Both the position numbers and the translations under genes were made by a program. From contig OZ316896.1 of NCBI GenBank assembly GCA_973895155.1, positions 9,931,525-9,995,524 on the forward strand: a stretch of DNA of 64,000 bases, given 5' to 3'. The DNA is from Marsupella aquatica. Lineage: Eukaryota > Plantae > Marchantiophyta. This document shows, piece by piece, positions 11,611-63,701 of the stretch (position 1 is the first letter of the stretch; each line of letters begins with the position of its first letter). The notes beneath the pieces were generated by a model, which did no database searches, was not told where the DNA came from, and worked only from the letters and a program-made list of their open reading frames with translations.

Positions 11611-14600
11611 ATGAAGTATCGGGGGGCCTTCGTGGTTTTACCGATATTTTTAAGCATTCTTGGGTTCGTCCATGCTGATAGGAGCTCCGATTTGTTACAA
11701 GCGATACAGGATCAAGCGAGATTACTTGCACTGGCAGCAGAAGAAAACTATGCCAATACTTGTGGTACATGATTAATCTCTGCTGGACTCTTCGCTCATA
11801 TATTCTTGATTGTTATTCCACGCACCTCGCAAGTTTTTTCTCGTTAGCGACTTCATTGTTGACGGTATCTTGTCAGCCTTGACTTAATCCATTGCCAGAT
11901 GCTAACGACCGTGTTCCACTGCTAAGGAACACGGTCATTAGTTACGGGTAGAGCTATTGGCATCGGGGGTAACTGATGACCGTCTTCCACTGCTTTTACA
12001 GAACTCGTGAGTACATGCCTCTCACCGCAGAATTGTTCAAAATTGGAATGCTATCCGATTGACCATCAGAGCAGCGAGACAACTTGTGCATCCACTGGCT
12101 ACAACGAGGTCTGTGACACGACAGGAGCACCTTGCAACACTACTGTCCAGGCTAATTTCCATAAATCATATGTCAGGTGAGTTGCTCTCTTAAGTGGAGC
12201 AAATCGACGCTTAAATTGGTTGACAGCGCATCGGTATCCGACTTTAATCATATTGGAGAGTATGTGTTTCAATCTATTAATTTGAATAATTCCAACGCAT
12301 GGCCACAACTTGCAAAGCCGCTCAGGGGCATTGTTTAGATTGTGAACCCAGGAAGAGACTCTTCGAGAGAGCAATTCCGCAGGCGCGGGCGGATGTATGC
12401 TGAAATCTACCGGCTCCATATGCATGTCTGCAGGGCTCCGCCGATTCGCTTCTCAGCGCAAGAACGAGAGATATACTTAGGAAGCACGATCTGTACCCAA
12501 CGAAATCTTGACCCAATATTCGTCAACGTGACTAAGACGTTAAGTAGCACCGCCAATATTAATTACTTCTACAATCTCTTTTTCGGCGCTGTCGACGGTT
12601 CATTTCGCCACTATCCTGGAAGAGTAAGCATTCTCCGGGAAGCATTTCTAATTTTGTCCGGGCAGTCACTACAGTCGTACCGTAATTGTACGAAAATGAG
12701 GATGTAAGCTTTCGACACGGACGTTCTGTCTTGACGTGTCCAAACTAATGGACTGCTCATTGCTTTGTCAGGAAAGTCTCAACCCCGTTTGTACCCAGTA
12801 TGACCCTCGACTACGAGCATGGTATTCAACTCTGAACCTTCGGATTGCTTATCTACTTCGAATGTATGCGCACTAATGCCCTGTTAAATTCCGTTATAGA
12901 AACTATCTGGTTAATTAGTAGTATTCCCTTGATCTTGTACGAGAGAGCTCGATATCAGGGCTTATATCGTTTCGTGCACTATGCAGGTATATTGGAGCTG
13001 TCTCCATTCTCAAAGATGTGGTTGTGCTAATTGATACTGGGACGGCTATGCAACAAAATGTTGATTTTCTGGATTCCACGACGTCATTGCTTGAAACGAC
13101 TACATCTATGATAAGGTGGTTTGTGCACACTCTCGCGTCAGGAGACCGAGTTACAGTACTTCCCGTCAACGCGTCTGGTAGCTATCCAGGACAGAGTCCA
13201 TATTATCAGGTAACTTGATCGCTTCTTACAGAATGGAGCGCCTTAGAAACCTTGACAACTCATCGTGTTATAGATTCGTTCCAATTTTCTCCTTTGCATG
13301 AAGATTATCTTGATCGTGATTCGTACACAATAATCTGAAAGCCGTGTACACCCGGAGCCCCAGCGTTTAACTTTAAAATTGTCTGCCGCTTGGTGCCCAT
13401 TTTCCAGTATAATGTCCCAGCCAACCAGCCCCTGGATCCCACGACGCCTGATTTCCAAGGACTGCTCTCATATTTAAACGCTTCAACATTCTCTGGAACC
13501 GAAGCGAATGGCAATGGGGCACCCACCAACTTCACAAAAGGATTCCTCAAGGCTAATTCTACCTTCAGCAGCTCATCACCCACCAACTCCATGAAGGTGC
13601 GGAGCTTACACTCATGTTCTGTATTGATGGTGAAACAATTCTTTTGTCTCCGTGAATCCTTTTGATACGATACCATTTGTATATCCAAGGTCACTTGTGC
13701 GATGATTTAAGGCGCTCTTGTTGCAAGCTAATTGATGTACTTTCGTCTTAAGAGTTGGAAACCTGCCGATTCTTCTACGTGCAGATCGTAATTCTGATCA
13801 CGAATAGCAAGGCTTATAATATTCCCCCAAATATTCCTGACAACGGCGACCTCGCTGCAGCGGGTGCGTTCAAGAAGTCAGTGTCGCAGTTGTTCGTGTA
13901 CGACTTGAGTCCTGGTGCAACTTATTGGGGCACATATGCTTGTCTAGACGGGGAAATGCAGAGCTTGTTTTCAGTCAATCCTCTGCTCTTCATGAGTTCA
14001 TATTACAACTTTTTGGCTAGCGCTCGTATTGCAGCCAGTAATAACCAAATCACGCCCTTCTGGCAGCAGCCTCACAAGGCTGCCAGTGGGTTTGGGCAGG
14101 TCATCTCGGTCGCCTATCCTGGTATGCTCCAAGTTGAAAATCTCCCGAAACAAATTATGTGCATTCTTTTTTGAACTTGTGAAGTACCTCATTTATGATA
14201 GGCTTCTCACAAAGAGTAGCTAAATTAAGGACATGTGGCGCTTTCCATCCTCTCGTAGTAACGGTTTGCAACTTGATTGACCTTTTCAGCAATTTCTCCC
14301 GACGGACAGTTGATTGGGGTGGCTGGAATGGATGTTCAGATAGCTGGACTTAAGAGTGATCCGCTTCTCAAATCAGAAGTTATAAGTACTCTGGCCAACA
14401 GCCCGTACATCCTCATTTCTCAGAATCCGAACGCTGGCAATATTGCCATCTGCCAGACGGTCAGCCTTCGTCTCCCTTTGGTTGCAGGCTTTGTCTATTT
14501 GGACTCCATTGTTATATATAGCCCCCCCCCGGCCCCTCCACACTACACCCACCCACCTCCTCCTCTTCACCGTCCCTTTTATTTGGAATTTGTGATATCC

Positions 14601-16782
14601 ATGCTCGAATAGAATGCATGAATGAATTTGAGAGGTTGGTATCATGGGTCCCTTATGCGTTTATTCTCAATCTCATGGACTCATTCGTTTACATTTTCTT
14701 AGATGTCTCATTAATTATGCGACTGACGTCTATGTTATTTTGTCAGTTAGAGTGCATTACTACTGTAGCCATATATGGCTGAATTTCCGTACATTTCTGG
14801 TCTCATTGCCTGCTTGGGCTCGTCATCCTTAAATTCCATTCAGCAGTAAATTTTCCGACATCAGTGAGTAGGAGATGAATCTGAAGAGCATTCAAGGTCG
14901 AAACAGTAGAGTGCGAGGCGGAAATGCATTCCTCCAAAATCTACATTATGAAAGTGGCAGATTTCTTCAACTACATATCTCTCCTCTCGAGAGCAGCACG
15001 TGAGCAAGCCTTGCGATGCTGTGCTCTGGCCAACACGATCATGCCAGAGTACGAGCTATAGGATGATTTCAAAATCTCCGGGACCGCATGGAATTTCAGT
15101 GCTATTTCTAGTGCCGAGACTTTCTACTCGTGAGGATCGATAGCGTAGGATGAATGAGTGAAGGTCCGAAGTAATTGCGGGACTGGTTGGCTGGTTGTTT
15201 CTGACATTGAGCCAAGAATATTGTAATTGATCTTCAGTTTAGGGGCTTGCATGTGAAAATGGGCTAAAGATGGTGGTTGGTTTTCCTGCAGGCATATAAG
15301 AGCAATTGTTCGGGCATTACAGTGGGAAGTACTGCGTCGCTCTGCAATCCGACAGGGGGGCCCGCAACAGACGAGGAATTGACACCATTGATATGCTGTC
15401 AGAACTGCCTTGGGGGTTCAAGTAATCACCTTTCCATAGTGGTGGGTGTAGTGGTGGGTGTGGTGGTCGGGCTGCTTGTGCTGGCGGTGTTGATTTTCGT
15501 ACGGAGAAGGTTGAAGCGAATCCCGGTCGGAAGCATAAGGGAAAGGCTCGCCCTAAATGATTATTCGTATGATGCGCTTTTTAAAGCCACAAGTGGTTTT
15601 TCTACTAAGAACATCATTGGCAAAGGAGCCTTTGGGGTAGTATACGAAGGGGTTCTTGCAAATGAAATGGTGGCGGTGAAGCAGTTGTCTAAACCAGCAG
15701 ATCGAGCCGAAGATTTCGAGGCTGAGATCAAGATTCTTGGTGTAACGAGTCATTCCAACCTGGTTGAGCTGAAAGGGACCTGTTTCCAGCCCACTAAGTG
15801 CTTTTTGGTGTACGAGTTGGTGGTTGGCGGTGATCTGCATGGTTGGCTTTGGCCTGCAGAAAAGAAAAGTGATGCGTGTGAGAGTGACAGTGAATTTAGG
15901 ACTAAGCGATTTCTGACTTGGAATAAGCGGAGAAAAATTGCCAGGGGGGTCGCTAGAGGACTGAATTATCTGCACCGTGGCCTGGAACCCAACGGGGCGG
16001 TTTTTCATTTGGACATAAAACCCCGCAACATTCTCGTGGAGTACAACTTCAATCCCAAGATAGCAGACTTTGGCACTTCGCAGCTCTACGAGCCGGGTTA
16101 CACGTTCCAGGCAGCGTCCGTGGTTTGTGGGACGTTTGGGTACATCGCTCCCGAGGTCCTTCAAGGTGGAGTCAAACCGAACTCCAAGATAGACGTGTAC
16201 AGTTATGGAATGGTCTTGTTACAGATCGTGAGTGGGCGGCAGATTAATGACCCAGAAGTGAAACCTTACTTGCTTCAGTGGGCGAAAACCCACGTAGAAG
16301 ATGGCCATGTCGAGAGGGTGGTGGATCAAAACCTCAGTGGGACAGTGCGGGTGGAGTGTAGAGAGGCTCTGATGTCGAATTGTAAACAGTTGATCAACTT
16401 AGCAATGCGCTGTCTTGCGGACAGACCAGACTTGAGGCCTGAGATGAGTGAAGTTTTGGAGATCATTGACGATTTACGAGATGTGCTTGACCTCGAAACT
16501 CCGCCTACCGGTGACGAGGACATATCAGGCTCTACCGACCATGATACGTCTACAGATGTTGAGCTCAAAAGGCTTACTTCCAGGCGCTTGAGATCCGTCT
16601 CGGGCGAACTCGAAGGATTGTACAAACACTTGAGTTCTGAATCTAAAGACGAAGTAGGAAGCATTGAGAGGAGCCCTGAAATTGGACCGTCAGTTACTTC
16701 ACCAGCAGAGGCAGTAAAGGGGCGTGATTTCTTTGGAGGCACTCAACATGGTTATATGTCCCTAGGGGCTTCACAAGAATGA
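11611..16782 (+). CDS. alpha2-delta/CACHD1-like (dCache+VWA) ectodomain receptor-like kinase, copy 1, 992 aa, 9 exons
   Basis: Exons 11611-11764, 12002-12176, 12434-12623, 12772-12821, 12987-13209, 13408-13596, 13785-14121, 14290-14459, 15292-16782. All introns are GT-AG, phases are consistent, total 2979 nt. Signal peptide MKYRGAFVVLPIFLSILGFVHA. Ectodomain motifs FFGAVDGSFRHYPG, YDPRLRAWY, KDVVVLIDTG, TNFTKGF, IVILITNS, GVAGMDV. TM IVVGVVVGVVVGLLVLAVLIFV then RRR. Kinase GKGAFG, VAVK, HLDIKPRN, DFG, GTFGYIAPE. Confidence 0.9.
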
Positions 16783-17005
16783 GCGGACGAAGAAGGCATC
16801 CCAGCCCTTAATTTAAGGTGGATGATCATAGAATACTATTGAGCCTTTTTCTTCACCAGCAGAGGCAGTAAAGGGGCCTGATTTCTTTGGAGGCACTCAA
16901 CATGGTTATATGTCCCTATGGGCTTCACAAGAATGAGCGGACGAAGAAGGCATCCCAGCCCTTAATATAATATAAGGTGGATGATCATAGAATACTATTG
17001 AGCCT
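16698..17005 (+). repeat. Tandem duplication (about 150 bp) of the last codons, stop and start of the 3' UTR of RLK copy 1
   Basis: ttcaccagcagaggcagtaaagggg...gaatactattgagcc occurs at about 16698 and again at about 16852. Confidence 0.9.
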
Positions 17006-19955: not shown

Positions 19956-21747
19956 CTCCCGGGGGGTCAATGTATGAAGGGTCCTACATCACGTGCGATT
20001 TTTTAGGTCTAGACCCCCTAACTTATAAGTGAAAATTAATATTTTTTCTCACTCTTATGTGCTTTAAAGCAACCATTTTTTACTATGTTTACCCCTAGAA
20101 ACCTTTAAGTAAAATTTTGTTTTGAATTAAACAATACCTATGAAGAAAAGATAGTATCTCATAAGTTGGAGCCAAAATTTTGCAGTCATTCAATTTTCTT
20201 TATATTTACAGTCAATGCAATTTACTCTGCCTTTCCACTTGACAGTACATCCTACATCTCCTATATAGTCCATAGATCCTGTCATAGATCATGAAACTAA
20301 ATAATTCTATATATTATTCTATGGTTGTTCAACCATCAACTTGTCTATGTTGCCCTCTACACTCTGAGATAGTGTAGCATGGTGGGAACCATACACTATG
20401 AATAGGAAACTAGACACTCTTGGTTGCCTATTCAAGGTGCCATCAATTCTCTACCTTGCTTCACAAACCATTAATTGCATGATTGGATTATTTTCATATA
20501 ATGGAGGGGAATTCAGCCAATGAGAGCTTAAAACTCATTTGCTTGAGCTCATTGCCTCAAAGAAGAAGCAAAGGTCACCTAGCTTCATGACAGGTCATTT
20601 GAATACAAAAGAAAGGTCCTCCCAATACATGTGGGGCATTGAACACCTCAACATTGGGCTTATCACGTCGGGATGATCACAGTTCTATGATAATGATGGA
20701 GTAAAATAAATGCAAGTTACATCATAGTAGTTCTTCAAAACAACTAGAAATACTCTGACTTGCAATTATAAACACACTTGAGGCAATACAAGACACTCCT
20801 GAAGACACACAAACCTCTAAGATATAAAAAGTCAAGCTTTGCACTAGCTTCCTTCTTCACCAAACCTCCCTTCCTGGTTTTGTTGTCTTCCTTCTCTTCT
20901 CACGCATTCACATTAGAAATAGTCATCATCTTGAGCCAGATAGATAGGGCATTTAAACAAATGCTAGCAAAACAGAGAGCAACGGACGTATAGACATGAC
21001 ATTCAGACAAATAGTTGGAGACAAACAGAGTCGATTAAAACAACATACATGACTCCAAGGTCCAACGGCAGACCTCCTATATAGCCAACATTGTCCTTCT
21101 GCAATCTTGTTATGGCATCAAGCTCTAACTTCTGACCTTTGCCTGAAACTCCAAAGTCTTTAAACTGAACATTGGAATTGGGCAGGACGTTGGTTGCCCT
21201 ATAACTCCTTGACTTGAACCTCAAACTTGAATACCAAAAACCCTAGCCTAACCTAACCTAACCCTCAATTCCTACCAAAGTCACAATGGCCTTCTTAGGG
21301 TACACCCTTCCATAGCCCTGGCTTCTATAGCCCTCCAATAATAGCAATGGCAATTGAGGCCCCATGAATTTGCTTAGCCCCTAAATATGAAGGCCCATAC
21401 CCTAGCAACACCCATGTATACTTTTAGCTATTTTCTTGGGAAAAGTTAAACACAAATTACTATTATTTGGGAGTACATGTGTACCTATCGCATAGTGACA
21501 AGTGTACCAATTAGAACATGCCACATGTCATATACATGTACATAACCTTAAAAACCCTAACTTTCTTACACAATTTCATGGAATATGACCTATTAATGAG
21601 GGCCTATTGTTCTTTAAAGCACATCCAAAGCTTTTTTACCCTATTGTTCTTCCACAAAACTTTGGAAGTCTCTCCTCAACACCATTTAAATGACCATATA
21701 CTTTGTCACACCTGATGTGGCACTTCCATGGAAGAGAACCCCCCAAG
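19956..21747. mobile_element. Non-autonomous TIR element of the CTC/CTT-GGGG family (1.8 kb), 8-bp TSD
   Basis: TSD actttgtt at 19948-19955 and 21748-21755. The ends match those of element 39586-40132 in the opposite orientation. Confidence 0.7.
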
Positions 21748-22973
21748 ACTTTGTTTAAGTTCACTAACCCTTGGGGCTCCACTAAAAGTAAAACCCCGCG
21801 CACAGTACTAATCCCCTTAGGGGCCTCAAGCCAAGGGGTGTCTCATATCACGTGCGAAGTTTTGGGGGAATAAACACCCTAAAACTTAAGCCTTGGAATA
21901 AAGTTTTTTTGAGGAATTTGGTTTTGAAAAACCCTATGATTCTTATAATTCTCAAAATTGGATTAAAACAACCCTAATGGTCTTCAACAAAAATTTAAAA
22001 CTCTTTCACTAATCCAATAAAAAATCCTATACTTAATTATTTGCGCATGATGGGTTGGAAGAAAAGAAGTGAGGACCCTGGGCTAATCCCAGAATTTTCA
22101 TTTCATTTCTTCCAACCCAGTGTGCAAATAAATGTAGGGTAACTTTTATTAATCAAGTTTAATGAAAGTCTTTTACATTTTTGTGGAAGAACATTAGAAC
22201 AATTTTAATCCAGTTTTGAGAATTCTAATAATCATAGGGCTTACTATATTGAGGGCCATACATCACTGTATGTGAGGGCTTGGATCCTTCATGACCCCCC
22301 TAAGTTACTTTATATAAAGTAGTACGACACCAATCATGTGTTAACACATATGCATTTAAACAACATATATTTCTATTAAATTTAATAAGTCTTTCATCAA
22401 AATCATTTAAATGGTTCTATGCTTTTCTGCACATGATATGCCACTTTTGTGAAAGTGACACCCCCGAGCACCTCAAAAACTATAATACAAGGTTGTGCCT
22501 TTTTATATATAGTGTGGTTGTCATTCAAATTTGCACTGCTAGCAGAATGAGAAATATGAAAGAATGTGACACGCCAAAGAGAGATAATAAAACAAAAAAT
22601 TAATCTAGTGTGAATGAAAATGGAATGCATTGTTTCCAAGCAAAAAGGATCTAATAGGACAGAAGAAATGGGGAGGGCATGTAGAAATGCAAGAGGATGA
22701 AGGAGACCTCCCTTTAGAGGATTCAGATCCTAACCCTTTACAAACTAAAAAAAAATGAAAATCAATCTTGGTCCCATATGAAAACGTTGTTTTTTCCCAC
22801 ACCACCATATCCATACACCCCTTGTAAAAGACATTCCCTGCCGAAGCTGCCCTTTAGCGTACCTATACCTTCCACAATGAAAAATTCAATTAAAAACTAA
22901 TTGAAATTATTCATATATAAATAATTCTAAAAAATGGATATAAATAAAATATAGAAAATAAGTTTGTTGGACT

Positions 22974-37624: not shown

Positions 37625-37858
37625 GGCAGCATGCAATTCAATTCCAATCTTATTTTCAAATCTATTCTCACTTTAATAAAGCGACGAATTGACGTGCACA
37701 AACATAGCAGACAACACTTGTATTGTGTACATGCCTTGCAAATTTTATTCAGCAATTGATTTGTACAAAATCAAAGTGTCGACATTGGTGGATGGAGTCT
37801 AACTAAAATCCAATCTTGACTAAAATTTCCTGCTCCAATTGACTTCAAGAAATAATAT

Positions 37859-42980: not shown

Positions 42981-45900
42981 ATGAAGTGTCGGGAGGCCTT
43001 CGTGGTTTTACAGATATTTTTAAGTATTCTTGGGTCCGTCCATGCTGATAGGAGCTCCGATTTGTTACAAACGATACAGGATCAAGCGAGAACACTTGCA
43101 CTGGCAGCAGAAGTCAACTATGCCAATACTTGTGGTACATGATTAATCTCAGCTGGACTGTTCGCTCATATATTCTCGATTGTGACTAAACGCACCTCGC
43201 AAGTTTGTTCTCGTTAGCGACTTCCTTGTTGATGGTATCTTGTCAGCCTTGACTTTATTGCCAGATCCAGAATCAATCATCGACGTACGGGTAGAGCTAG
43301 TGGCATCGGGATAACTAATGACCGTGTTCCACTGCTTTTACAGAACTCGTGAGTACATGCCTCTCATCGCAGAATTGTTCAAAATTGGAATGCTATCCGA
43401 TTGACCATCAGAGCAGCGAGACAACTTGTGCATCCACTGGCTACAACGAGGTTTGTAACACGACAGGAGCACCTTGCAACAATACTATCCAGGCTAATTT
43501 CCTTAAAGGATATATCAGGTGAGTTGCCCACTTAAGTGGAGCAAATCGATGCGTAAATTGGTTGACAGCGCATTGGTATTCGACTTGATATTGGAGAGTA
43601 CGTATATGTGTTTTAATCTATTTAGTAATTCCCAACGCATGGCCACAACTCGCAAAGCCGCTCAGGGGCATTGTTTAGATTGTGAATCCAGGAAGAGACT
43701 CTTCGAGAGAGTATTTCCGCAGGTGCTCACGGATGTATGCTGAAATTTACCCGCTCCATATGCATGTCTGCAGGACTCCGTCGCTTAGCTTCTCAGCGCA
43801 AGAACGAGAGATGTACTTAGGAAGCACGATCTGTACCCAACGAAATCTTGACCAAAACTTCATCAACGTGACTAAGACCTTAAGCAGGACCGCCAATATT
43901 AATTACTTCTACAATCTCTTTTTCGGTGCTGTCGACGGTTCATTTCGCCACTATCCTGGAAGAGTAAGCATTCCCCGGGAAGCATTTCTAATTTTGCCCG
44001 GGCCGTCAGTATAGTCATACCTAATTGTAAGAAAGTTTTGAGAATGTAAGCTTTCGACACGGATATATGTTACGTTGGTCTGTCTTGACGTGTCCGACCT
44101 GATGGACCTCTCATTGCGTTGTCAGGAAAGTCCCAACCGCGATTGTGGCCAGTATGACCCTCGACTACGACCATGGTATGTAACTCTGAACCTTCGAATT
44201 GCTTATCTACTTCGAATGCATCTGTTAATGCCCTCTTATTATAGAAACTATCTGGTTACTAGTTTCCCCTTGATCTTGTACGAGAGAGCTCGATATCAGG
44301 GCTTATATCGTTTCGTTCACTATGCAGGTATATTGGAGCTGTATCCATTCTCAAAGATGTGGTTGTGCTAATTGATACTGGGACGGCTATGCAACAAAAT
44401 GTTGATTTTCTGGATTCCACGACGTCATTGCTTGAAACGACTATGGCTATGATAACCAGTTTTGTGAAGACTCTTGCGTCAGGAGACCGAGTTACAGTAC
44501 TTCCCGTCAACGCGTCTGGTAGTTATCCAGGACAGAGTCGATATTATCAGGTAATTTGATTGATGCTACAGAATGGAGCACATTAGAAACCCTCAGAACA
44601 CATGGTGTTATTGACTCGTTCCAACTTTCTCCTTTGCATTAAGGTTACTTATCTTGATCCAGATCGTGATTCGTATACAGTAATTTGAAAGCCGTCTACA
44701 CCCGGAGCTCCAGCGTTTAACTTAAAAATTGGCTGCCACTTGGTACCCATTTAATTTGCAGTATAATGTCCCAGCCAACCAGCCCCTGGATTCCTCGACC
44801 CCTGAGTTCAAAGGTCTGCTCTCATATATGAGCGGTTCAACATTCTCTGGAACCGGAGCGAATGGCAATGGGGCACCCACCAACTTCACTGACGGATTCC
44901 TCCAGGCCAATTCTACCTTCAGCAGCTCCTCACCCACTAACTCCATGAAGGTGCAGAGCTTACACTCATATTCTGGATTGGTGGTGAATTGTCTCTGTCA
45001 ATCCTTTTGATACGATACCATTTTGCTTATAAGAGGACTTATGGGATGATTTAATTAGTGCGCTCGATCGTGCTGAAGCTAATTGATGTACGTACTTTCG
45101 TTCTAAGAGTTGGAAGCCTGCCGATTCTTCTGCGACTTGCAGATTGTAATTCTCGTCACGAATAGCAAGGGCAATAATATTGCCCCGAATATTCCTCACA
45201 AGGGCGATCTGGCCGCAGCGGGTGCGTTCAAGAGCTCAGGGTCGCAGTTGTTCGTGTACGACTTGAGTCCTGGTGCAACTTATTGGGGCACATATGCTTG
45301 TCTAGACGGGGAAATGAAGAGCTTGTTTTCTGTCAACCCTCTGCTCTTCATGAGTTCATATTACAGCTTTTTGGCTAGCGCTCGTGTTGCAGCCAGTAAT
45401 AACCAAATCACGCCCTTCTGGCACCAGCCTCACTACTCTGCCAGTGAGTTTGGGCAGGTCATCACGGTCGCGTATCCTGGTACGCTCCAAGTTGAAAATC
45501 TCTCGAAACAAATGTCCATTCGTTTTTGAACTTTTGAAGTACCTCATTTATGATAGCCTTCTCACAAGGAGTAGCTGAATTAAGGACATGTGGCGCTTTC
45601 CATCCTCTCGTAGTAACTGTTTGAAACTTGATTGACTTTTTCAGCAATTTCTCCCGACGGACAGTTGATTGGGGTGGCTGGAATCGATGTTCAGATAGCT
45701 GGACTTGAGAGTGATCCGCTTCTCAAATCAGGCGTTATAAATACTCTGGCCAACAGCCCGTACATCCTCATTTCTCAGAATCCGAACGCTGGCAATATTG
45801 ACATCTGCGAGACGGTCAGCCTTCCTCTCCCTCTGCTTGCAGGGTTTTGTCTATTTTGACTCCATTGTTATAGTCCCCCACTGGCCCCTCCACACTACCC

Positions 45901-48404
45901 CACCCACCTCCTCCTCTTCACCGTCCCTTTTGTTTTGAATTTGTGATATCCTTGCTCGAATAGAATGCATGAATGAATTTGAATGGTTGTATCATCGGTC
46001 ATTCATGCGTTTAATTCTCATTCTCATCCACTCATTCGTTCACATTTTCTTAGTGTCTCATTAATTATGCGACATGCAGTTTTGGTTGGAGGAGTTCTAA
46101 CTCAATCCAAAGCTGACGTCTATGTTATTTTGTCAGTTAGAGTGCATTACTACTGTAGACATATATGGCTGAACTTCCGTCCATTTCTGGTCTCATTGCC
46201 TGCTTAGACTCGTCATCCTTAAATTCCGCTCAGCAGTAAATTTTCGACATGAGTGAGTAGGAGATGAATCCGAAGAGCATCCACGGTCGAAACAGTAGAG
46301 TGCGAGGCGGGAATGCATTCCTCCAAACTCTACAGTGCCAGATTTCTGGGTCTACATATCTCTCCTCTCGAGAGCAGCACGTGAGCAAGCCTTGCGATGC
46401 TGTGCTCTGGCCAACCATGTCTAGGTCTGCCTTGCAAGATGGGTACTTAGGTCATATTGCCATTTCCAACTAGAAACTAGTGTTTGGATGCGTTCTTCGA
46501 CATGCTGAATTTGGTAATAGTTATTACATCTTCCAATTAGCCTTCACGTGAAAACCTGTTAGTTTGATTGAAGGATTTCGGAAGCCACGTAGGTACAAAC
46601 TACAAACTTGAGCCCTCCTCATAGTCCTTCAACGATTAGTATCTGCTTCCACCCCCCCACGAGATATAGGATGATTTCAAAATCTCCGGGACCGCATGGA
46701 ATTTCAGTGCTCTTTCTAGTGTCGAGACTTTTCTACTCGTGGGGATAGCGCATGATGAATGAGTGAAGGTCCAAAGTAATGCGGGACGGGTTGGCTTGTT
46801 GTTTCTAACATTGAGGCTATAATAATGTAATTGATTCAGTTTAGGGGCTCCATGTGAGGATGGGCTAAAGATGTTGGTTGGTTTGCCTGCAGGCATATAA
46901 GAGCAATTGTTCGGCCATTGCAGTAGGAAGTACTGCGTCGCTCTGCAATCCGACACGGGGGCCCGCAACAGACGAGGAATTGACACCATTGATATGCTGT
47001 CAGAACTGCCTTGGGGGCTCAAGTAATCACCTTTCCATAGTGGTGAGTGTAGTGGTGGGTGTAGTGGTCGGGCTGCTTGTGCTGGCCGTGTTGGTTTTCC
47101 TACGAAGGAGGTTGAAGCGAAGACCGGTCGGAAGCATAAGGAAAAGGCTCGCCTTAAATGATTATTCTTATGATGTGCTCCGGAAAGCTACAAATGATTT
47201 TGCTACAAAGAACATCATTGGTAAAGGAGCCTTCGGGGTAGTATACAAAGGGGTTCTTGGAAATGAATTGGTGGCGGTGAAGCAGTTGTCTAAACCAGCA
47301 GATCGAGCCGAAGATTTCGAGGCTGAGATCAAGATTCTTGGTGTAACGAGTCATTCCAACCTGGTTGAGCTGAAAGGGACCTGTTTCCAGCCCACTAAGT
47401 GCTTTTTAGTCTACGAGTTGGTCGTTGGCGGTGATCTGCATGGTTGGCTTTGGCCTGCAGAAAAGAAAAGTGATGCGTGTGAGAGTGACAGTGAATTTAG
47501 GACTAAGCGATTTCTGACTTGGAATAAGCGGAGAAAAATTGCCAGGGGGGTCGCTAGAGGACTGAATTATCTGCACCGTGGCCTGGAACCCAACGGGGCG
47601 GTTTTTCATTTGGACATAAAACCCCGCAACATTCTCGTGGAGTACAACTTCAATCCAAAGATAGCAGACTTTGGCACTTCGCAGCTCTACGAGCCAGGTT
47701 ACACGTTCCAGGCACAGTCCGTGGTTTGTGGGACGTTTGGGTACATCGCTCCCGAGGTCCTTCAAGGTGGAATGAAACCGAACTCCAAGATAGACGTGTA
47801 CAGTTATGGAGTGGTCTTGTTACAGATCGTGAGTGGGCGGCAGATTAATGACCCAGAAGTGCAACCTTTCATGCTTCAGTGGGCGAGAACTCAAGTAGAA
47901 GATGGCCATGTCGAGAGGGTGGTGGATCAGACCCTCAGCGGGACAGTGCGGGTGGAGTGTAGAGAGGCTCTGATGGCGAATTGTAAGCAGTTGATCAACT
48001 TAGCAATGCGCTGTCTTGCGGAGAGACCAGAATTGAGGCCTGAGATGAATGAAGTTCTGGAGACCATTGACGGTTTACGCGATGTGCTTGACCTCGAAAC
48101 TCCGCCTACCAGTGACGACGACATATCAGGCCCTGCCGACCATGAAACGTCTACAGATGGTGAGCTCAAAAAGCTTACCTCCAGGCGTTTGAGAGCCGTC
48201 TCGGGAGAACGCGAAGGATTGTACAAACACTTGAGTTCTGAATCTAAGGATGAAGTAGGAAGCATTGAGAGGAACACTGAAATTGCACCGTCACTTGGTT
48301 CACCAGCAGAGGCAGTAAAGGGGCGTGATTTCTTTGGAGGTACTCAATATGGGTATATGTCCCTAGGGGGGCTTCAGAAGAAGGCGTCCCAGCCCATAAT
48401 GTAA
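42981..48404 (+). CDS. alpha2-delta/CACHD1-like (dCache+VWA) receptor-like kinase, copy 2, 999 aa, 9 exons
   Basis: Exons 42981-43134, 43344-43518, 43774-43963, 44126-44175, 44328-44550, 44762-44950, 45143-45479, 45645-45814, 46893-48404. Exons 1-8 have the same lengths as in copy 1. Motifs YDPRLRPWY, GVAGIDV, HLDIKPRN. Confidence 0.9.
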
Positions 48405-50528: not shown

Positions 50529-53500
50529 AAACCCCCCAAAACTTCTTTGAAGTTTGCACTGAAATTGCAAGGCAAGAATTTTTTGAAAATATATCAATTA
50601 AAAAGGCGTCTATCAGTGAGTATTGTACACAGCAGGCACATCAAACTGAATATTTAAATTTTTTTGTATGGCTGCTACAAAGCCACTACTCTTCATTGTT
50701 GATCATCCGCAATCTTCATTGGAATGACTTGGAGTGAAAAGAATTTTTTTTAAGTTCTTTTTCTCAATTATTTCTAGCAATTCTGCCTGCTGCATGTCTC
50801 AATTTTAATGTTCCAGACTTTTGGATTCTGACCCTTCTAAAGGGTCTCTCTAGCTAATATTCTGCACTTCTGGATTTTGCACTTAGAGAGAGATGCATGT
50901 ATTAGTGTTGGGTGGGTATACTATTGGCAAGGTATAGCATCCAGGTAAAGCTAGGTATTAAATTTTGATATATCTTGTGTAATACCTTACCTGGCAGGTA
51001 TCCTCTCTTCCTATATCCACCTATATACCCGACCTGGAAAATCTATACCTATATTAATACCTATACATTCCATGCATGTCTAGAGGGAGGTATACGCCAG
51101 GTATTGAATTATGAAAAAATACTAAAAGTAGGTGTAAGGGTTTGGGGAAGGAGTACTTGAGGAGGTGCCTCTCTCTCTCTATCACATTATTTATCACAAA
51201 AAAGACAAAAACTTATATGGTATAGGTGTTAGTAAGGGTTTTAGGAGGTTGTAGGGGAGGTGCCTCCCTCCCTAGGCTAGCTTGGGAGTGTACAAAAGTG
51301 CAGTTTTTGGCTAGATAGTTCCTTGAAATTCCTCGCTCCCACTTGAATGCAAGCCACATTGAATGCAAGCACACATTCTCAATTTCTGGTGTGTTGACAT
51401 ACCTTCAACGACATAGGCTTGGGTTGGAAAATCTTGAGATGTTGTGATGATCTTCAAGAATTGGCCAGACGATTGTAAGGTGGACATGTACAATCTTGGA
51501 GAGTACTGGTGACATTGGTGACAGAAGGCGATATCATTATTTGATGCTGCCAAGGATGAGTTGGTTGATGCGGGATTGCTGGAGGATGAGCATTGACTAG
51601 CACTTATTATTTGTTATGGAGGTTGTCCCTAAAGTCAAAGCATAGTTGTATCACCAAGTGTTATATGCATATTGTGCACGTTAAAGGTGACTATGTTTTT
51701 ATTTATTTATAATTTTAGGCCCAACTACTTGTTCTTTGAACGTGAATAGCAGGGAGGACAATAAAATTGTCACCAAATATATTTCTTCTCCACATTTCTT
51801 TAAGGTTAAAGAAATGATAAACAAACCACCATGCATGTCATTTTAATAATCATGCATACATACTCGTTTCTAGGGACATTGATCCCTCTTTCTATGCACA
51901 TATTTTCTATGCACATATGTTATGGTGGGGCTATCTTGGAACTCATTTTTAATATAAATAGAAATCATGATAAAATGCATGTATAATTATCATTTGTTAT
52001 ACATCATTCATAGTCATGATTTTCACATCGACATGATGAGACATGGAGTTACGGTCTAGAGGCTTTACTCTAGAAGCTAGGCCGCAAGTCTAGCTTATAG
52101 TTGGCTCTTTATAAGTAAAAATATTTGAGTAACTTGATTTTCAATTTCTGCTAAGTAAGTATTATGAGTCTTAGTTTGCTATACCTTTACCTATACCCTT
52201 AATACCCCAGTGCCTGTCCTAAATTCTATACCTATACCAGGTCTACAATCTGAGAATTTGTTTTCTTACATATCTCTATATCTTGAAAACATTTGGGAAC
52301 CTTACATTAATATCAGTTCAATACCATACCTTGCCAGCTAGGGATGTAAGCTACACCTTTACCTGCCGGGTATAAGGCTTGGTATAAGGAAAACCGAGAT
52401 ATATGCTTAGTAGACCCCCTTTGAGAACAAGTTTGCTAAATGAACCCCCTCTAATTTTTCTCCAATCTGGACGGTTGATGGACCTTTCGATCTCAGATCT
52501 GGACTGTTGATGGACCTCAGGGGGTCAATCAAGTAACAAGTTTCATTTTGGGGGTTGATCAAGCAAATACCTCAAGGAAAACCCTATTCCTGCAGGCCGA
52601 CTGTACCACCTGATGAGGTGGCCCTAAACTTTGGCCAAAACTGCACTCTCCACTCTTTTGTAAAAGAGTGGAAAGCTATAAGTGAACCCCACCTCCGGGT
52701 GGCATCTGTGTCAGACAATTATTTGTGTCAAAAATAATGAACACATTGAAGTCCTTACACTTGCTTACACCTGGCCGGGCCCACTCATCTGGTCTACCAT
52801 TTGACACATAGTCTGGTCCATGCTCTGTTTCCCTCATGCTTATTATTATTTCAATAGTAGGGTGGGCAGCAGCCCCGGCATCAGCCTCCCTAATTACAAG
52901 GGCTGCATTGATTAGGGTCAAAGTTGCCTCTTTCCTCGTTCTCCATTAGAGCAATCAAAACTACAAAGAGAAAAATCATGAAGGGCATTAACAATAAGAT
53001 AAGGCTGGTCCTGATTAGAAGGCATTCTGGAATATTATACCCCCAATCGGAGGGCTTTAGCCCAAGTTTGTAGGGAAGTTACGGCCCACAATGTGGGTAT
53101 CCAGAATGTCAACTTAAAAACTTGAGTGACTTTTGGAAAAAACCCAAAAAAAGTAAACTCCCTGAACTTAAGGTCATTTAATTGTAAAGAAATAAGAAGT
53201 AAAGCCAGGATTTTAGGCCAATTTTTGTCTTAAATGGTAAAACTGTTTGTAATTCGAGTTACATGTGCCTAGATTGATGGATCAGTGCATAATTTTCTCC
53301 TCGGAGGAAGGCGTGTATTGTAGAAAACTAGCCTGTCTGATTGTAACCCCTTCCTTGAACGTAAATAGGGAGGAGGAGCAAAGAAAGGGATCCACACAAT
53401 GCCATGTAGGATGGTAAACTTGTATCATACCAGCTGGATTACCTGTTCCTTGAACATAATTAGAGATGAGATGAGATGAGATGAGAAAAAAATTGCCTTA

Positions 53501-57166: not shown

Positions 57167-60100
57167 ATGCAGTATCGGGAGGCCTTCGTGGTTTTACTGA
57201 TATTATTTAGCATGCTTGGGTCCCTCCATGGAGACAACAGCTCCGATTTCTTACGAACGATACAGGATGAAGTGAGAACAATTGCTATGGGAGCACAAGA
57301 CAACTATGCCAATACTTGCGGTAGATAATTAATCTTACCTTGACTGCTCGCTCATTCTCGATTGTGACTAGAATGATTGGACCTCGCAAGTTTGTTCTCG
57401 TTAGCGATTTTTGTGTTGTTAGCATCTTCTCAGCCCTGACTTAATTGCTAGATGCAAAATCAATCATCGACGGGTACGTAGAGCTAATGGATCTGGGATG
57501 ACTGATGACCGTGTCCACTGCTTTTACAGAACTCGTGAGCACATGCCTCTCATCGCAAAATTGTTCAAGATTGGAATGCTATCCGCTTGAAAATCAGAGC
57601 AGCGAGACAATGTGTGTATACGTTAACTATAACAAGTTGTGTAACACGACAGGAGCACCTTGCAACAGTACTATCGCGGCTAATTTCCTTAAAGGTTACG
57701 TCAGGTGAGTTGCCCACATTAAGTGGAGCAGATCGCGCTTGAATTGGTTAAAAGCTCATCGGTATTCGACGTGAATCATATTGGATAGTATGTGTTTCAT
57801 TCTATGTTGAATAATTCCCAATGCGTGACCACAATGCGTGACCACAGCTCGAAAAGTTCAGGGGCATTGTTTCGTGAACCCAGGAAGAGACTCTTCAAGA
57901 GAGCAATCCCGCAGACGCTGACCGATGAATGCTGAAAACTACACGCTCCATGTCTGCAGGACTCCACCGCTTGGCTTCTCAGCGCAAGAACGAGAAATAT
58001 ACTTAGGAAATACGATCTGTACCCAACGAAATCTTGACCACACATTCGTCAGAGTGAATAACACGCTAAGAAGCAACTCTAGCGTTAATTACTTCTACCA
58101 GCTCTATTTCGGTGCTGTCGACGGCTCATTTCGCTACTATCCTGGAAGAGTAAGTTTACTTAATGTTGCGCGGGCCATCTATAGAGTCGTACGTATTAAT
58201 TGTAAGAAAGTTTTTAGATGTGAGCTTTTCGACACGGATGTTACTAGTTGTCGTGTCTTGACGTGTCCGGCCTGATCGACAGCTCATTGCTTTGTCAGGA
58301 ACTTCTCAGCGCCGATTGTGGCCAGTATGACCCTCGAATACGACCATGGTAGTTAGCTCTGAACCTTTGAATTGCTTATGTACTCGAATGTACTAGTATG
58401 TGTTAATGTCGTTAGAATACTCTAATGTAGCCCTGTTGAATTCTGTTCTAGACAATATATGGTTACTTATTTTCTCTTGAACTTGTACGAGAAAGCTCGA
58501 TTTCATAGCTTATATCCTTTCATGCATTATGCAGGTACATTGGAGCTATATCCGTTCTCAAAGACGTGGTTGTGCTAATTGATACTGGGACGGCTATGCA
58601 ACAATATGTTAATTTTCTAGATACCACGACGTCATTGCTTCAAACAACCACATCGATGATGAGGTTGTTTGTGCAAACTCTCGCGTCAGGAGACCGAGTT
58701 ACAGTACTGCCAGTCAACGGGTCTGGCAGTTATCCAGGACAGAGCCAATATTATCAGGTAATTTGATAACTGCTTACAGAATGTAGCACATTATTTAGAA
58801 ACCCTGTTTCCTTTGTATTAGAGGTTATCTTTATAAAAATTGGAAAGCCGCGTACACCTGGAACTCGAGCGTTTAACATGAAAATTGCCTGCTACTTTGT
58901 GCCCAATTTCCAGTATAATGTTCCAGCCAACCTGGCTCTGGATCCCACGGTCCCTGCTTTCCAAGGACTGCTCTCCTATATAAGCGGTTCAACATTCTCT
59001 GGAACCGGAGCGAACGGCAATGGGACACCGACCAACTTCACAGACGGATTCCTCAAGGCTAATTCTACCTTCAGCAACTCCTCACCCACTAACTCCATGA
59101 AGGTGCAGAGCTTACACTCATATTGTGGATTGGTGGTGAAACAAAATTTCTGTAGCTGTCAATCCTTTTCATACCATTAGTTTGATTTTGAGAGGTCATT
59201 TGAGGAATGATTTTATGAGCGCGCTCTTGTTGCAAGGCAATCAATGTACTTTCGTTTTAAGATTTAGGAACCTGCCGATTCTTCTACGTGCAGATTGTAA
59301 TTCTCATCACGAATAGCAAGAGCAATAATATTCCTCACCGCGGTGATCGCTCTGCAGCGGATGCGCTGAAGAAAATAGGGTCGCAGTTGTTTGTGTACGA
59401 CTTGAGTCCTGGTGCAACGTTTTGGGGCACATATGCTTGTCTAGACGGGGAAATGCAGAGCTTCTTTTCTGTCAATCCTCTGCTCTTCATGAGTTCATAT
59501 TTCAGCTTTTTGGCTAGCGCTCGTGTTGCAGCCAATAGTGGCAAAGCCATGCCCTTCTGGCAGAACCCTTACAACGATGCCAGTGAGCTTGGGCAGGTCA
59601 TCACGGTTGCGTATCCTGGTATGCTCCAAGTTGAAACTCTTTCGAAACATATGTCCATTCCTATTTGAACTTTTGAAGTACCTCATGGGATGGTATCCTT
59701 TTGACAATAGTAGCTTAATTAAATAAATGTGGCGCTTTCCATCCTCTCGAAGTAACGGTTTGCAACTTGATTGACCTTTTCAGCAATTTCTTCCGACGGA
59801 CAGTTGATTGGGGTGGCTGGAATCGATGTTCAGATGGCTGGACTTGAGAGCAATCCGCTTTTCGAATCAGGCGTTGAAAGATTGTTGGCCAACAGTGCCT
59901 CTCGCTTCATTTCTCAAAATCCGAATGCAAGCGATATTGCGATATGCCAGACGGTCAGCCTTCATCTCCCTTTCTTTCAAGTTTTGTCTATTTTGACTCC
60001 ATTGTTAGTGCCCTCACCCACCTCCTTCTCCTCAGTTTCCCTTTTGTTTTGAGTTGGTGATATCTTTGGCTGGCTATCTAGTGTCTGACTTTCCAAAACT

Positions 60101-63100
60101 ACACAACAAATGCCACCGAAATGCAGGACCATTTGGAAATTCAGGAAATAGTTAAGGTTTTTTATGGTAAGTCATACTAAAAATCCAATTTGAAAAGAAT
60201 TCAAAGCCCAGACAAAGCAAGGGCTTTTGTTCTGCTGATCCTCATGGACTGGGTCAAATGAGCCAACCAGGCTACACCAGAAAGAAAAATTGTGACCCAT
60301 TGCTTTAGAATGGTGCTTCACTTTTGTGAAGCAGTCCCAGGTAGTTTTTCTTTGTGTCCCAATTAATTTATTTATATGCTGTTGGTTTTTGGCAGACTTG
60401 TGTTGAAGACTTGTGAATTCATTAGTACATCTTTTGGATCTCTGTTTAATCTCAAAGTTTTCCAGCATGCTCTTTGATATCCAATCTATTCTATATGATC
60501 AAATATATATACCAATAAGCCAACTACCCACAAAAGTTTCACTTTTGTGAAGGACTTCCCTTCCTAAGTAGTTTGGGCATGAGCAACAAGCTACCACTTT
60601 TGGAAAAGACACTTCACTTGTGTGAGGACCCCCTGAATAGTTTGGAGATGAACAGTTAATTACCACACCACCGGGTAAATTAATCAAAACCAGCTGCAAA
60701 CGATAAGGAGCCGATTTAATTTACAGGTCACATTTCAGTCAAAAAGCATAAACGATGCCACCTGAGTCTTTGAGATGTTCTGTGCTAGTCCATATTAGCT
60801 TTGGATATCCATCCAGCCCTAACAGCAAACCCCTTGGTTCATTCTACCTTTATTTACGTTCACGTCTACATTGGTTCATCCTACCTTTATTTACATTCAC
60901 GTTTACATTGTAAACACTACGATAAAACTAGGGCTTTCTGTATCAAGTCTTGGAATAGGAAAATAGATAAGAATAAGAATGACAAAAAGAATTTTTTCTT
61001 TTGATATTGTAGAGCAGGAGAGGGGGCTCCATATAGTGAGACCCACAAGTGAAATGAATGCATGACTGATCATTTTTTTTCTTTGGTATCAATGGTCATT
61101 CATGCTTTTATTATCGTTCTCATTTCCTTAGTGTCTCATTATCGGACTTGTAGGTTTGAATGGAGGATTTTTAATTCATAGCTGGACTAGATTTGCCACC
61201 TGAAGTTAATTACTGCTGTTGTTATGGGTGAACATCCTACATTTCCAGTATCATTGCGTGATTGGGCTCGTCACCTTGAAATTCCATTCATCTCTAAATT
61301 TTCCGACATAGGAGATCACTGAAGCTCAAGTAGATACAGTAGGGGCGTGGCGGGAATGCTCCCCTCCACACTCTACAACTTCCAGAATTCTTCAACTACA
61401 GATCTCTCCTCTCGAGAGCAGCAATGAGCTTGCCTTGCGATTCTGTGCTTTGGCCAACAATTCATGGCTACATCTGTCTTGCAAGATAGGTGCTGAGAGT
61501 CATCCGTAGGGTCATATTGCTACTTTCAACCAGAAGCTAGTATTTGGGTGCGTGCTTAGGCAGGCCGAATCGGGTGCTGAATTCTGTTGTGATATTACAG
61601 CTTCTCATTAGTCTTCACGTGAAACCATCTCATTTTGATTGAAGGATTCCGGAAGCAAGCAGGTTAGCTTGAGGTCTCCCCGGCCTGCTCCTTTCTAGTC
61701 TACGGACTTCAACGATTAGTCGAAAGTTGTCAGCATTTGCCCCTATTCACTCTCTGCCCTTGGCCACCCTGGCAGTCAAGTATGCCGTCCTTGCAATCAT
61801 TTCAGACAACGAGATATAGGATGATTTTAAAATCTACGGGAGCGCATGGAATTTCAGTGCGTTTTATAATTGTTTGGAATTTTCTACTTGTGTGGATAGC
61901 CTGAGGGTGATGAATGATAGAGGACGTCCAATATAATGCGAGACTGGTTGGCTCGTTGTTTCTAATTGAGTCAGGATTAGTTGCAGTTGGATGATCATCA
62001 GTTCTGCATTCTGTGAAGATTGGCATCTTCAGTTCTGCATTCTGTGAAGATAGGCTAAAGACACTGCGTTGGTTGGTTTGCCTGCAGGCGTATAAGAGCA
62101 ATTGTTCGGGCGTTACACTAGGAAGTACTGCGTCGCTCTGCAATCCGACAGCGTCACCCGCATCAGACGAGCAATTGACAGCCTTGCTATGCTGTCAGTA
62201 CTGCCTTGGGGGTTCAAGTGATCACCTTTCCATAGTGGTGGGTGTAGTGGTGGGTGTAGCGGTCGGGCTGCTTGTGCTGGCGGTGTTGATTTTCCTACGG
62301 AGGAGGTTGAAGCCAAGACTGGCCAGAAGCATAAGGAAAGGGCTCGCGTTAAATGATTATTCTTATGATGTGCTCCGTAAAGCCACAAATGGTTTTGCTA
62401 CGAAGAACATCATTGGTAAAGGATCATTTGGGGTAGTATACAAAGCGGTTCTTGGAAGTGAAATGGTGGCGGTGAAGCAGTTGTCTAAACCAGCAGATCG
62501 AGCCAAAGATTTCGAAGCTGAGATCAAGATCCTTGGTCTTACGAGTCATTCCAATCTAGTTGAGCTGAAAGGGACGTGTTTCCGGCCCACTGAGTGCTTT
62601 CTGGTGTACGAATTGGTAGATAGCGGTGATCTGCATAGTTGGCTTTGGCCAGTAGAAAAGAAAAGCGATGCACGTGAGAGTGACAGTGAATGTCGGAGTC
62701 AGCGATTTTTGACTTGGAATAAGCGGAGAAAAATTGCCAGGGGAGTCGCCAGAGGACTGAATTATCTGCACCGTGGCCTGCAACCCAACGGGACGGTTTT
62801 TCATTTGGACATAAAACCCCGAAACATTCTGGTGGAGTACAACTTCAATCCCAAGATAGCAGACTTTGGCACTTCGCAACTCTACGAGCCGGGTTACACG
62901 TTCAAGGCAGCGTCCGTGGTTTGTGGGACGTTTGGGTACATCGCCCCCGAGGTCCTTCAAGGTCAAGTCAAGCCGAACTCCAAGCTAGACGTGTACAGTT
63001 ATGGAATGGTCTTGTTGCAGATCGTGAGTGGGCGGAAGATTAATGACCCTGAAGTGAAACCTTACTTGCTTCAGTGGGCGACAACTCACGTAGAAGATGG

Positions 63101-63701
63101 CTACGTCGAGAGGGTGGTGGATCCGAACCTGAGCCTCACAGTGCAGGAGGAGTATAGAGAGGCTCTGATGGCGAACTGTAAACAGTTGATCAACTTAGCA
63201 ATGCGCTGTCTTGCGACTAGACCAGAATTGAGGCCAGAGATGAGTGAAGTTTTGGAGACCATTGACGGTTTACGGGATGTACTTGACCTCGAAACGCCGA
63301 ATACCAGTGAAGAGGACAGATCAGGCCCTGCCGACCATGGAAAGTCTACAGATGTCAAGCTCAAAATGTCCAGGCCTACTGCCAGGCGCTTGATATCTTT
63401 CTCGGGAGAACGCGATGGATCCCAGGATCGATCTTTGAAACGTTTTAGTTCTGAATCTAAAGATGAAGTGAGAAGCATGGAGAGGAACTCTGAAATTGCA
63501 GCGTTAGCTATTTCACCAGCAGATGCTGGAAACAGGCGTGATTACCGTGAAAGTAGTACCAAAGGTAATCAAGATGGTCCTGGTTCTGATGGTGTTCGTA
63601 CATTATCTGTAGATTATTCCTCGCTCAAAAGTGTCCTGGAAGTGCCAAATACGCACATAGATCCGAAGTCCAGGAATTTACGGAGAAGTGCCTCGAGCTA
63701 G
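57167..63701 (+). CDS. alpha2-delta/CACHD1-like (dCache+VWA) receptor-like kinase, copy 3, 1029 aa, 9 exons
   Basis: Exons 57167-57320, 57530-57704, 57960-58149, 58299-58348, 58535-58757, 58914-59102, 59294-59618, 59784-59953, 62088-63701. Exon 7 is 12 nt shorter (in frame). Motifs YDPRIRPWY, WQNPYNDASELGQVITVAYP, GVAGIDV, HLDIKPRN; longer Ser-rich tail. Confidence 0.9.
60070..61049. mobile_element. About 1-kb insertion in intron 8 of RLK copy 3
   Basis: Absent from intron 8 of copies 1 and 2. The right end ctccatatagtgagacccacaag is the reverse complement of the 50234-family terminus. The left end and TSD were not resolved. Confidence 0.5.

Follow-up and report, generated by a model that had tools for sequence, protein, structure and literature searches.

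Tandem non-RD receptor kinase genes of Marsupella aquatica with an alpha2delta-like, VWA-split Cache ectodomain and divergent predicted ligand pockets

Introduction

Plant kinases in which a VWA domain splits a Cache domain that carries an amino acid-binding motif are already in print. The available sections of PMC8915833 (Gumerov et al. 2022) report Ser/Thr kinases with a single VWA-split dCache_1AA domain in Streptophyta, and Dataset S3 of that paper names the Physcomitrium proteins XP_024373479.1 and XP_024368103.1 along with Marchantia, Selaginella, fern, cycad, and algal entries. Here we analyze three tandem genes of this kind (copies 1, 2, and 3) in a 64,000-nt window of Marsupella aquatica contig OZ316896.1, where the window is the whole stretch of DNA analyzed and all coordinates are positions within it. 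The genes resemble the kinases of that report in architecture and motif, but copies 1 and 2 fail its motif. Both Physcomitrium proteins were recovered in our searches as homologues, each with a kinase. In the available sections, the report treats plant kinases in one sentence and a dataset, with no discussion of kinases that lack the catalytic-loop Arg (non-RD kinases), of loss of the MIDAS (metal ion-dependent adhesion site), or of a missing membrane-proximal module.

The architecture has since been catalogued. As far as its accessible passages go, metaRLK 2.0 (PMC13174206, 2026), which cites Lehti-Shiu and Shiu 2012, defines a bryophyte-only VWA receptor-like kinase (RLK) family of 60 proteins from 8 species, with 7 members annotated VWA;dCache_1 and 4 annotated VWA;MCP-like_PDC_1, distributed over five moss families and the Marchantiaceae and including no leafy liverwort. 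The window genes fit its description (bryophyte RLK, VWA ectodomain) in a comparison by family counts rather than by member sequences. The same passages draw no link to an amino acid pocket, and the trees reported below suggest more than one kinase origin for such receptors. A 2023 review of receptor kinases (PMC10317173) leaves Cache and von Willebrand domains unmentioned in its accessible text, and our literature search, whose coverage left most subscription papers outside, turned up no work that tests what a plant member does. A preliminary description of this locus had proposed a new RLK class, a proposal overtaken by the 2022 report and the 2026 catalogue. The window genes are further members of a known architecture that is apparently uncharacterized functionally. 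What is added here is the non-RD kinases, the broken MIDAS, the single Cache module of the fold model, a natural series of pocket variants, a fast-changing Cache module, and probable repeated kinase fusion.

Three further systems are informative by comparison. The calcium channel subunit CaV alpha2delta-1 (CACNA2D1), whose first dCache_1 domain holds the VWA insert, is like the window proteins in fold, element order, split motif, and pocket sites, but it has two nested dCache_1 domains, an intact MIDAS, a glycosylphosphatidylinositol anchor, and no kinase, whereas the window genes encode one predicted Cache module, a broken MIDAS, and a transmembrane (TM) segment with a kinase. CACHD1, a transmembrane protein, has the same VWA-split Cache fold but carries its intact motif in a second dCache_1 domain, which is absent from the window proteins, and likewise lacks a kinase. 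Chemoreceptors of the PctA type (dCache_1AA) share the motif residues, but they have no VWA domain and possess two PDC modules, two transmembrane helices, and other output domains. On the intracellular side, EFR-like non-RD immune kinases, as presented in the accessible text of PMC8463890, similarly have a Pelle kinase without the catalytic-loop Arg; EFR differs in its leucine-rich repeat ectodomain, peptide ligand, and identified co-receptor.

Results

Three intact nine-exon genes encode the receptor kinases

A six-frame motif scan of the window located the ectodomain and kinase motifs three times each on the plus strand. Splicing at GT-AG sites yields proteins of 992, 999, and 1029 aa for copies 1, 2, and 3, respectively, without internal stops, and every copy comprises eight ectodomain exons followed by one exon for the TM segment and kinase (Table 1). 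All 24 introns have GT..AG borders, with the phase series 1,2,0,2,0,0,1,0 common to the three copies, and exons 1–8 are equal in length across copies except that exon 7 of copy 3 has lost 12 nt in frame. When copies 1 and 2 are compared, exons 1–8 show 0 gaps and introns 1–7 show 29, 21 of which are not multiples of 3; copies 2 and 3 are separated by one exon gap (12 nt) and by 40 gaps in introns, where 30 have lengths that 3 does not divide. Substitution identity between copies 1 and 2 weighs against the exon calls because it is about equal in introns (0.87–0.93) and exons (0.88–0.96). Therefore, the indel pattern alone separates exons from introns.

An NCBI-annotated protein of Calypogeia fissa, P0001 (1044 aa), is 67–72% identical to the three copies, and its alignment is continuous over all eight junctions, including that between exon 8 and the kinase exon. 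It was the sole match among 275 candidates when exon 7 was used as the query. Against a family profile built without the P0001 row, the spliced copies score E values of 1e-102 to 1e-110, and the genomic fragments P0008 and P0009 from other samples end at these same borders of exons 7 and 8. Four sequencing runs that match copy 1 retain its introns and show no GT-AG joints, and thus are DNA runs. We regard the three intact nine-exon genes as confirmed, with the splicing pattern drawn from the DNA and its homologues. The in-frame joining of eight short exons to a TM-plus-kinase exon, as given in the preliminary description, therefore stands in all three copies on the strength of the GT-AG borders, equal phases, and collinearity with P0001, and the outer bounds given there (11611 for the copy 1 ATG and 63701 for the copy 3 stop) are exact. 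Of the ectodomain motifs named there, TNFTKGF is found only in copy 1 (TNFTDGF in copies 2 and 3), IVILITNS becomes IVILVTNS in copy 2, and copy 3 has the variant YFGAVDGSFRYYPG. Intron 4 interrupts the WY of the YDPRxRxWY motif.

No further partial copies were found within the window by tblastn, and a search for a hidden exon in intron 8 returned none (best E 0.38). A conserved kinase-less isoform made by reading through exon 8 was considered and rejected, as the read-through tails differ among copies. The spacers between copies, of ~26 kb and ~9 kb, hold transposon remains. The unit duplicated between copies 1 and 2 reaches ~1.4–1.9 kb upstream of the ATG (9703–10506 and 41564–42326, 79% identical), and a 153–158 nt tandem duplication lies across the copy 1 stop codon (16694–17005); the C-terminal tails differ among copies. 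All four DNA runs also carry a contig that corresponds to 14030–14125 with 7 differences and whose flank is unlike any of the three copies, which is probably a fourth paralogue outside the window.

The ectodomain is predicted to be a single Cache module split by a VWA domain

An HMMER search with the P0001 ectodomain matched 661 proteins at E ≤0.001, of which 150 were listed; word-indexed ectodomain searches matched 1 and 2 proteins. We computed a fold model for the P0001 ectodomain from an alignment of 94 matches and cluster members, hand-picked by coverage, with P0001 (pLDDT 83.7, pTM 0.89). Foldseek placed 12 alpha2delta-1 entries at the top (best E 9.5e-19), CACHD1 next (1.2e-12), and isolated VWA proteins after these. 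Structural alignment of the same model with VIA-align gave a Z score of 26.6 for alpha2delta-1 (root mean square deviation 4.2 over 401 residues), 22.6 for CACHD1, and 17–18 for VWA alone. The family profile matched alpha2delta-1 over residues 83–502 (E 1e-73) and, over the N-terminal half of the motif, PctA (E 6e-9), and ESM Atlas features agree with the Cache-VWA assignment. Thus, the alpha2-delta/CACHD1 homology first proposed from a few motifs is borne out by HMMER, Foldseek, and VIA-align matches of the P0001 model and family profile, and the alpha2delta-1 motifs listed in the preliminary description are all present in the profile-alpha2delta-1 alignment.

In the P0001 model and family profile, and by sequence in the window proteins, the VWA domain sits inside the distal Cache module between the two halves of the amino acid motif, the position proposed earlier. 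No membrane-proximal PDC module, the second module of a dCache_1 domain, is present in the P0001 model, which has no strand of at least 3 residues after position 458 (pLDDT 57–91 in this region) and shows short helices and a Cys-rich stalk but no beta-sheet past the last Cache strand. The motif Asp lies 85 residues from the TM segment, and the alpha2delta-1 profile match stops at residue 502. From the missing sheet and the 85-residue gap, the model predicts one Cache module rather than a distal and a proximal one.

None of the three copies has an intact MIDAS (DTGTA, Asn334). Among the 94 homologues, its two Ser residues and last Asp are kept in 63, 74, and 78, respectively, and those from Riccia and Physcomitrium score above the Pfam cut-off for VWA. 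Copies 1 and 2 retain the full set of 16 ectodomain cysteines, and the ectodomains of the three copies contain 8–14 N-glycosylation motifs. The profile cysteine that matches copy 1 Cys380 (exon 7) aligns with alpha2delta-1 Cys404, which we take to be the cysteine of the alpha2-to-delta disulfide. The VIA-align alignment ends in the delta region, and the Cys-rich stalk may be a delta-like piece.

Copy 3 retains the amino acid motif that copies 1 and 2 have altered

We compared the pockets with the amino acid motif [YFWL]....[RK].W[WYF](215-245)[YF](27-34)D from the supplement of PMC8915833, and mapped pocket-lining sites reported in the available text of the gabapentin structure paper (10.1101/2022.12.05.519047) through the profile-alpha2delta-1 alignment. 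Copy 3 satisfies the full motif through Tyr183, Arg188, Trp190, Tyr191, Tyr420, and Asp450, at spacings of 228 and 29, and the two C. fissa proteins carry it as well. In contrast, copies 1 and 2 fail at the [YF] site, where they have His424, while other motif positions (Tyr183, Arg188, Trp190, and Asp454) are kept. Among the three copies, the pocket thus conforms to the published motif in copy 3 alone.

Site 424 is Tyr in 92 of the 94 homologues and His in none of them. Site 426 is Ala or Ser in copies 1 and 2 and Asp in 68 of 94 homologues. These copies also share Tyr159Phe and Tyr169His at sites that vary in the family (Phe at 159 in 17/94). With P0001 as the outgroup, the pocket changes map to the copy 1/2 stem; because the copy 3 pocket equals that of the outgroup, the copy 1/2 changes are derived. 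The His424 codon of copy 1 is matched exactly in contigs of all four DNA runs (two studies, two coded organisms), one of which may be the window's own source. Judging from the residues concerned, copies 1 and 2 have likely lost ligand binding or bind differently as a result.

All three copies have Phe167, where alpha2delta-1 has Ala and where 41 of 94 homologues have Phe. In the accessible text of PMC9901441, docking models Phe at the equivalent site as excluding bulky ligands in alpha2delta-3 and -4.

The kinases are Pelle-type and non-RD

All three kinases have intact catalytic motifs with an HLD catalytic loop and are non-RD. The best PDB matches of the P0001 kinase are BAK1, BRI1, PBL2, BIK1, and IRAK4, in keeping with the Pelle-type assignment made at the outset, and by sequence the domain appears closest to Pelle/IRAK kinases. 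As in other RLK/Pelle proteins, ectodomain, one TM helix, and cytoplasmic kinase are placed on one polypeptide by the junction read from DNA and homologues. Because angiosperm tandem-kinase proteins dominated the kinase search, the assignment stops at the Pelle type and the trees sample bryophyte kinases thinly.

The Cache module changes faster than the VWA domain and kinase

Across the three copies, the ratio of nonsynonymous to synonymous differences per site (pN/pS) is 0.34 for the kinase (purifying, p 4e-8), 0.49 for the VWA domain, and 1.22 for the Cache module. The Cache module changes faster than the VWA domain plus kinase (1.22 versus 0.40, Fisher p 5e-6). Where the copy 1/2 stem changed fastest, 16 substitutions fall in residues 23–150, outside the pocket motif.

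The sensor module is old and has probably acquired kinases repeatedly

A kinase is carried by 3 of the 150 matches listed (of 661), and one further cluster has kinase-bearing members. The 30 proteins checked include named representatives from liverworts, mosses, a hornwort, Selaginella, Psilotum, Cryptomeria, Ginkgo, Chara, and Klebsormidium; none of the named ones is an angiosperm protein. Most relatives found lack a kinase, including the Klebsormidium, Chara, Selaginella, Psilotum, and Ginkgo proteins. The VWA-split Cache module is an old eukaryotic unit that is mostly kinase-less, and the earlier picture of a bacterial-style sensor wired to a kinase misstates its origin. A recent bacterial transfer was also rejected, as the closest relatives are plants and other eukaryotes.

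For a kinase tree, we took 57 hand-picked sequences out of 276 kinase domains and added the Ceratodon kinase. One clade unites the kinases of the window with those of C. fissa and Riccia fluitans (Shimodaira-Hasegawa approximate likelihood ratio test support 97). Two Physcomitrium kinases belong to other groups, and the one from Ceratodon lies at a great distance. An approximately unbiased test on 34 rows rejected a single clade of seven Pelle-type kinases of such receptors (p 0.0047), and in an ectodomain tree of 48 rows kinase-bearing and kinase-less proteins are intermixed. Repeated fusion or kinase swapping is likely, with the reservation that the trees are quick ones and include few reference kinases from bryophytes.

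The Ceratodon purpureus protein, P0154, combines a similar ectodomain with a long insert and a very divergent RD kinase that is far from Pelle kinases. In P0057, P0076, P0083, P0107, P0128, P0079, P0070, P0101, and P0102, Cache-VWA is joined to C-type lectin, ANF_receptor, or folate-receptor domains, and the module has therefore been widely reshuffled.

Features of the window

Coordinates of the genes and their parts are collected in Table 1.

Table 1. Coordinates of the three receptor kinase genes and selected features within the window
Feature	Positions	Strand	Exons or details	Basis
Copy 1 gene, 992 aa	11611..16782	+	exons 11611-11764, 12002-12176, 12434-12623, 12772-12821, 12987-13209, 13408-13596, 13785-14121, 14290-14459, 15292-16782	junctions checked against P0001
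Copy 2 gene, 999 aa	42981..48404	+	exons 42981-43134, 43344-43518, 43774-43963, 44126-44175, 44328-44550, 44762-44950, 45143-45479, 45645-45814, 46893-48404
Copy 3 gene, 1029 aa, canonical pocket	57167..63701	+	exons 57167-57320, 57530-57704, 57960-58149, 58299-58348, 58535-58757, 58914-59102, 59294-59618, 59784-59953, 62088-63701
Likely signal peptide, copy 1	11611..11676	+	~residues 1-22	judged by eye from sequence
Exons 3-4, copy 1	12434..12821	+	N-terminal half of predicted Cache pocket, with carboxyl-binding Tyr183 and Arg188; Trp190 spans intron 4	sequence comparison
VWA insert, copy 1	12987..14003	+	~residues 198-400, exons 5-7; MIDAS broken (DTGTA, Asn334)	model of P0001 and alignment
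His424, copy 1	14073..14075	+	motif Tyr site	alignment; DNA-run contigs
His424, copy 2	45431..45433	+	motif Tyr site	alignment
Tyr420, copy 3	59570..59572	+	canonical motif Tyr	alignment
Exon 8, copy 1	14290..14459	+	last Cache strand with predicted amine-binding Asp454; start of Cys-rich stalk	model and alignment
Predicted transmembrane helix, copy 1	15436..15513	+	hydropathy peak from residue 545	hydropathy
Pelle-type non-RD kinase domain, copy 1	15601..16461	+	HLD catalytic loop; remaining catalytic motifs intact	sequence comparison
Non-RD kinase domain, copy 2	47202..48062	+		sequence comparison
Non-RD kinase domain, copy 3	62397..63257	+		sequence comparison

Other elements in the window appear to be mobile or their remains. 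On the minus strand, 5944–8308 holds two overlapping open reading frames (ORFs) in different frames, the upstream one matching RVT_1 (E 6e-11), and is likely a frameshifted non-LTR (long terminal repeat) retroelement. At 36215–38944, a transposase ORF (Plant_tran, DDE_Tnp_4) broken by an in-frame stop faces an ORF with a NAM-associated match, a layout that we take to be PIF/Harbinger-like. The long minus-strand ORFs at 25745–30471 (830, 296, 338, and 162 aa) have no Pfam match at E 0.001 and probably belong to a mobile element. Related A+T-rich repeats in both orientations occur at 21638–22471, 39583–40040, and 50238–50529, with a palindrome at 21929–22242, and resemble miniature inverted-repeat transposable elements. 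The G+C-rich plus-strand ORFs at 386–1975 and 3477–4169 encode coiled-coil and low-complexity sequence with no Pfam match above cut-off and are likely retroelement remains.

Discussion

We see an evenly balanced case for the proposal that copy 3 binds a small free amino acid extracellularly and signals through its non-RD kinase and a co-receptor, likely in microbe or damage surveillance, with copies 1 and 2 likely serving another small ligand. By analogy with PctA and alpha2delta-1, Tyr183, Arg188, and Trp190 of copy 3 would hold the ligand carboxyl and Tyr420, Asp422, and Asp450 its amine, while Phe167 would limit the ligand to small amino acids. A VWA domain without a MIDAS could be a scaffold or a partner surface rather than a metal-dependent adhesion site. 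Binding of an apoplastic amino acid may alter the ectodomain or its partner contacts, upon which a co-receptor would activate the non-RD kinase and give a surveillance output. With no proximal Cache module, the signal might pass by partner recruitment through the Cys-rich stalk instead of the piston route of bacterial receptors. After duplication, the ancestor of copies 1 and 2 would have acquired Tyr159Phe, Tyr169His, and Tyr424His, and then Ala or Ser in place of Asp426, with the Arg, Trp, and last Asp kept. Because copies 1 and 2 retain the carboxyl clamp and last Asp but alter other amine-side residues, they would bind something else or nothing.

A bolder version of this proposal is unlikely, though worth stating. 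It holds that the proteins are immune-type receptors that read free amino acids or kindred small molecules with the pocket that takes gabapentin in humans; that the copies form a diversifying repertoire (a small amino acid for copy 3 and, by way of His424, a new ligand class for copies 1 and 2); and that bryophytes several times fused different kinases to one ancient sensor lost in flowering plants.

Several observations weigh against amino acid-driven surveillance. The fold was predicted on P0001, and the window proteins were matched to it by sequence. Pfam dCache_1 (PF02743) scores P0001 at 23 bits (E 6.5e-5), below the gathering score of 45; the VWA split lowers the score. No plant or eukaryotic kinase-linked protein is among those titrated in the available part of PMC8915833. 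According to the accessible text of PMC9901441, Trp or Phe alone left the surface expression of alpha2delta-1 unchanged, and occupancy therefore need not mean signaling. The link between non-RD kinases and immunity is a correlation, and the moss relative P0153 has an RD kinase. Finally, pN/pS for the Cache module does not significantly exceed 1 (p 0.20; the pocket strands give 1.86, with p 0.08), it falls to 0.81–0.87 when set against whole-gene pS, and the Cache, VWA, and kinase regions were pooled after the pairwise counts were known. Positive selection on the Cache module is thus not demonstrated, and relaxed constraint fits equally well.

Relaxed constraint is the core of an alternative that concerns only copies 1 and 2, namely that their ligand site is decaying and that they are ligand-blind receptors, co-receptors, or decoys. 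The failure of the published motif through a His that none of the 94 homologues has at that site, and a Cache-module pN near neutral against whole-gene pS, speak for it, but Arg188, Trp190, Asp454, and every ectodomain cysteine are kept, the frames are open, and the copy 1 His codon recurs in runs of two coded organisms. We consider such decay to lie on the unlikely side, and it can coexist with amino acid binding by copy 3. Another possibility is that the receptor chemistry is the same but is used outside defense, to sense cues of nutrition, symbiosis, or development (organic nitrogen, fungal partners, or reproduction). Bacterial dCache_1AA domains act as nutrient sensors, and a family kept from Klebsormidium to gymnosperms, mostly without kinases, suggests an old general role; tandem arrays with fast ectodomain change are, however, usual in immune receptors and count against this possibility. 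So does the non-RD kinase, the usual immune-receptor pattern, in line with the accessible text of PMC8463890, which ties non-RD kinases to innate immunity and describes the dependence of EFR on BAK1. Taken together, we judge a role outside defense to be distinctly unlikely.

It is improbable to a similar degree that the pocket holds a structural amino acid or peptide end while the true input is a protein or peptide on the VWA or Cache surface, as in the alpha2delta-channel and CACHD1-FZD5/LRP6 complexes. According to the available text of PMC9901441, amino acids by themselves did not measurably affect alpha2delta-1, the CACHD1 structures are protein complexes by their titles, the 16 stem substitutions in residues 23–150 lie away from the pocket motif, and few of the listed matches have a kinase (3 of 150). 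Nevertheless, no copy has an intact MIDAS, the VWA domain is under purifying rather than diversifying selection (pN/pS 0.49), and several derived changes fall at known pocket-lining sites. Highly improbable is a faulty gene model in which the product of exons 1–8 is secreted and exon 9 encodes a membrane kinase of its own. Although intron 8 is long (832–2134 nt), the phase-0 GT-AG junction of exons 8 and 9 is identical in all three copies, the Cys-rich stalk crosses it and aligns with intact homologues, and the read-through tails of exon 8 are unconserved. Moreover, the proteins annotated in C. fissa, Riccia, and Physcomitrium carry both parts, and a Physcomitrium ORF found only in Logan (670 aa, on a 4.3-kb contig that is probably a transcript) joins Cache, TM, and kinase.

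Prior publication of the architecture limits the surprise of these findings. If binding and signaling are borne out, the locus would provide a plant receptor kinase in which the small-molecule pocket can be predicted and the residues to mutate are defined, and a Cache pocket driving a kinase in a eukaryote; the role of natural ligands in alpha2delta itself is unclear, according to the accessible text of PMC9901441. The locus has a built-in control, in that canonical copy 3 stands beside two copies with altered pockets. The non-RD kinases, together with a rapidly changing sensor, would then indicate a route of surveillance in plants other than angiosperms.

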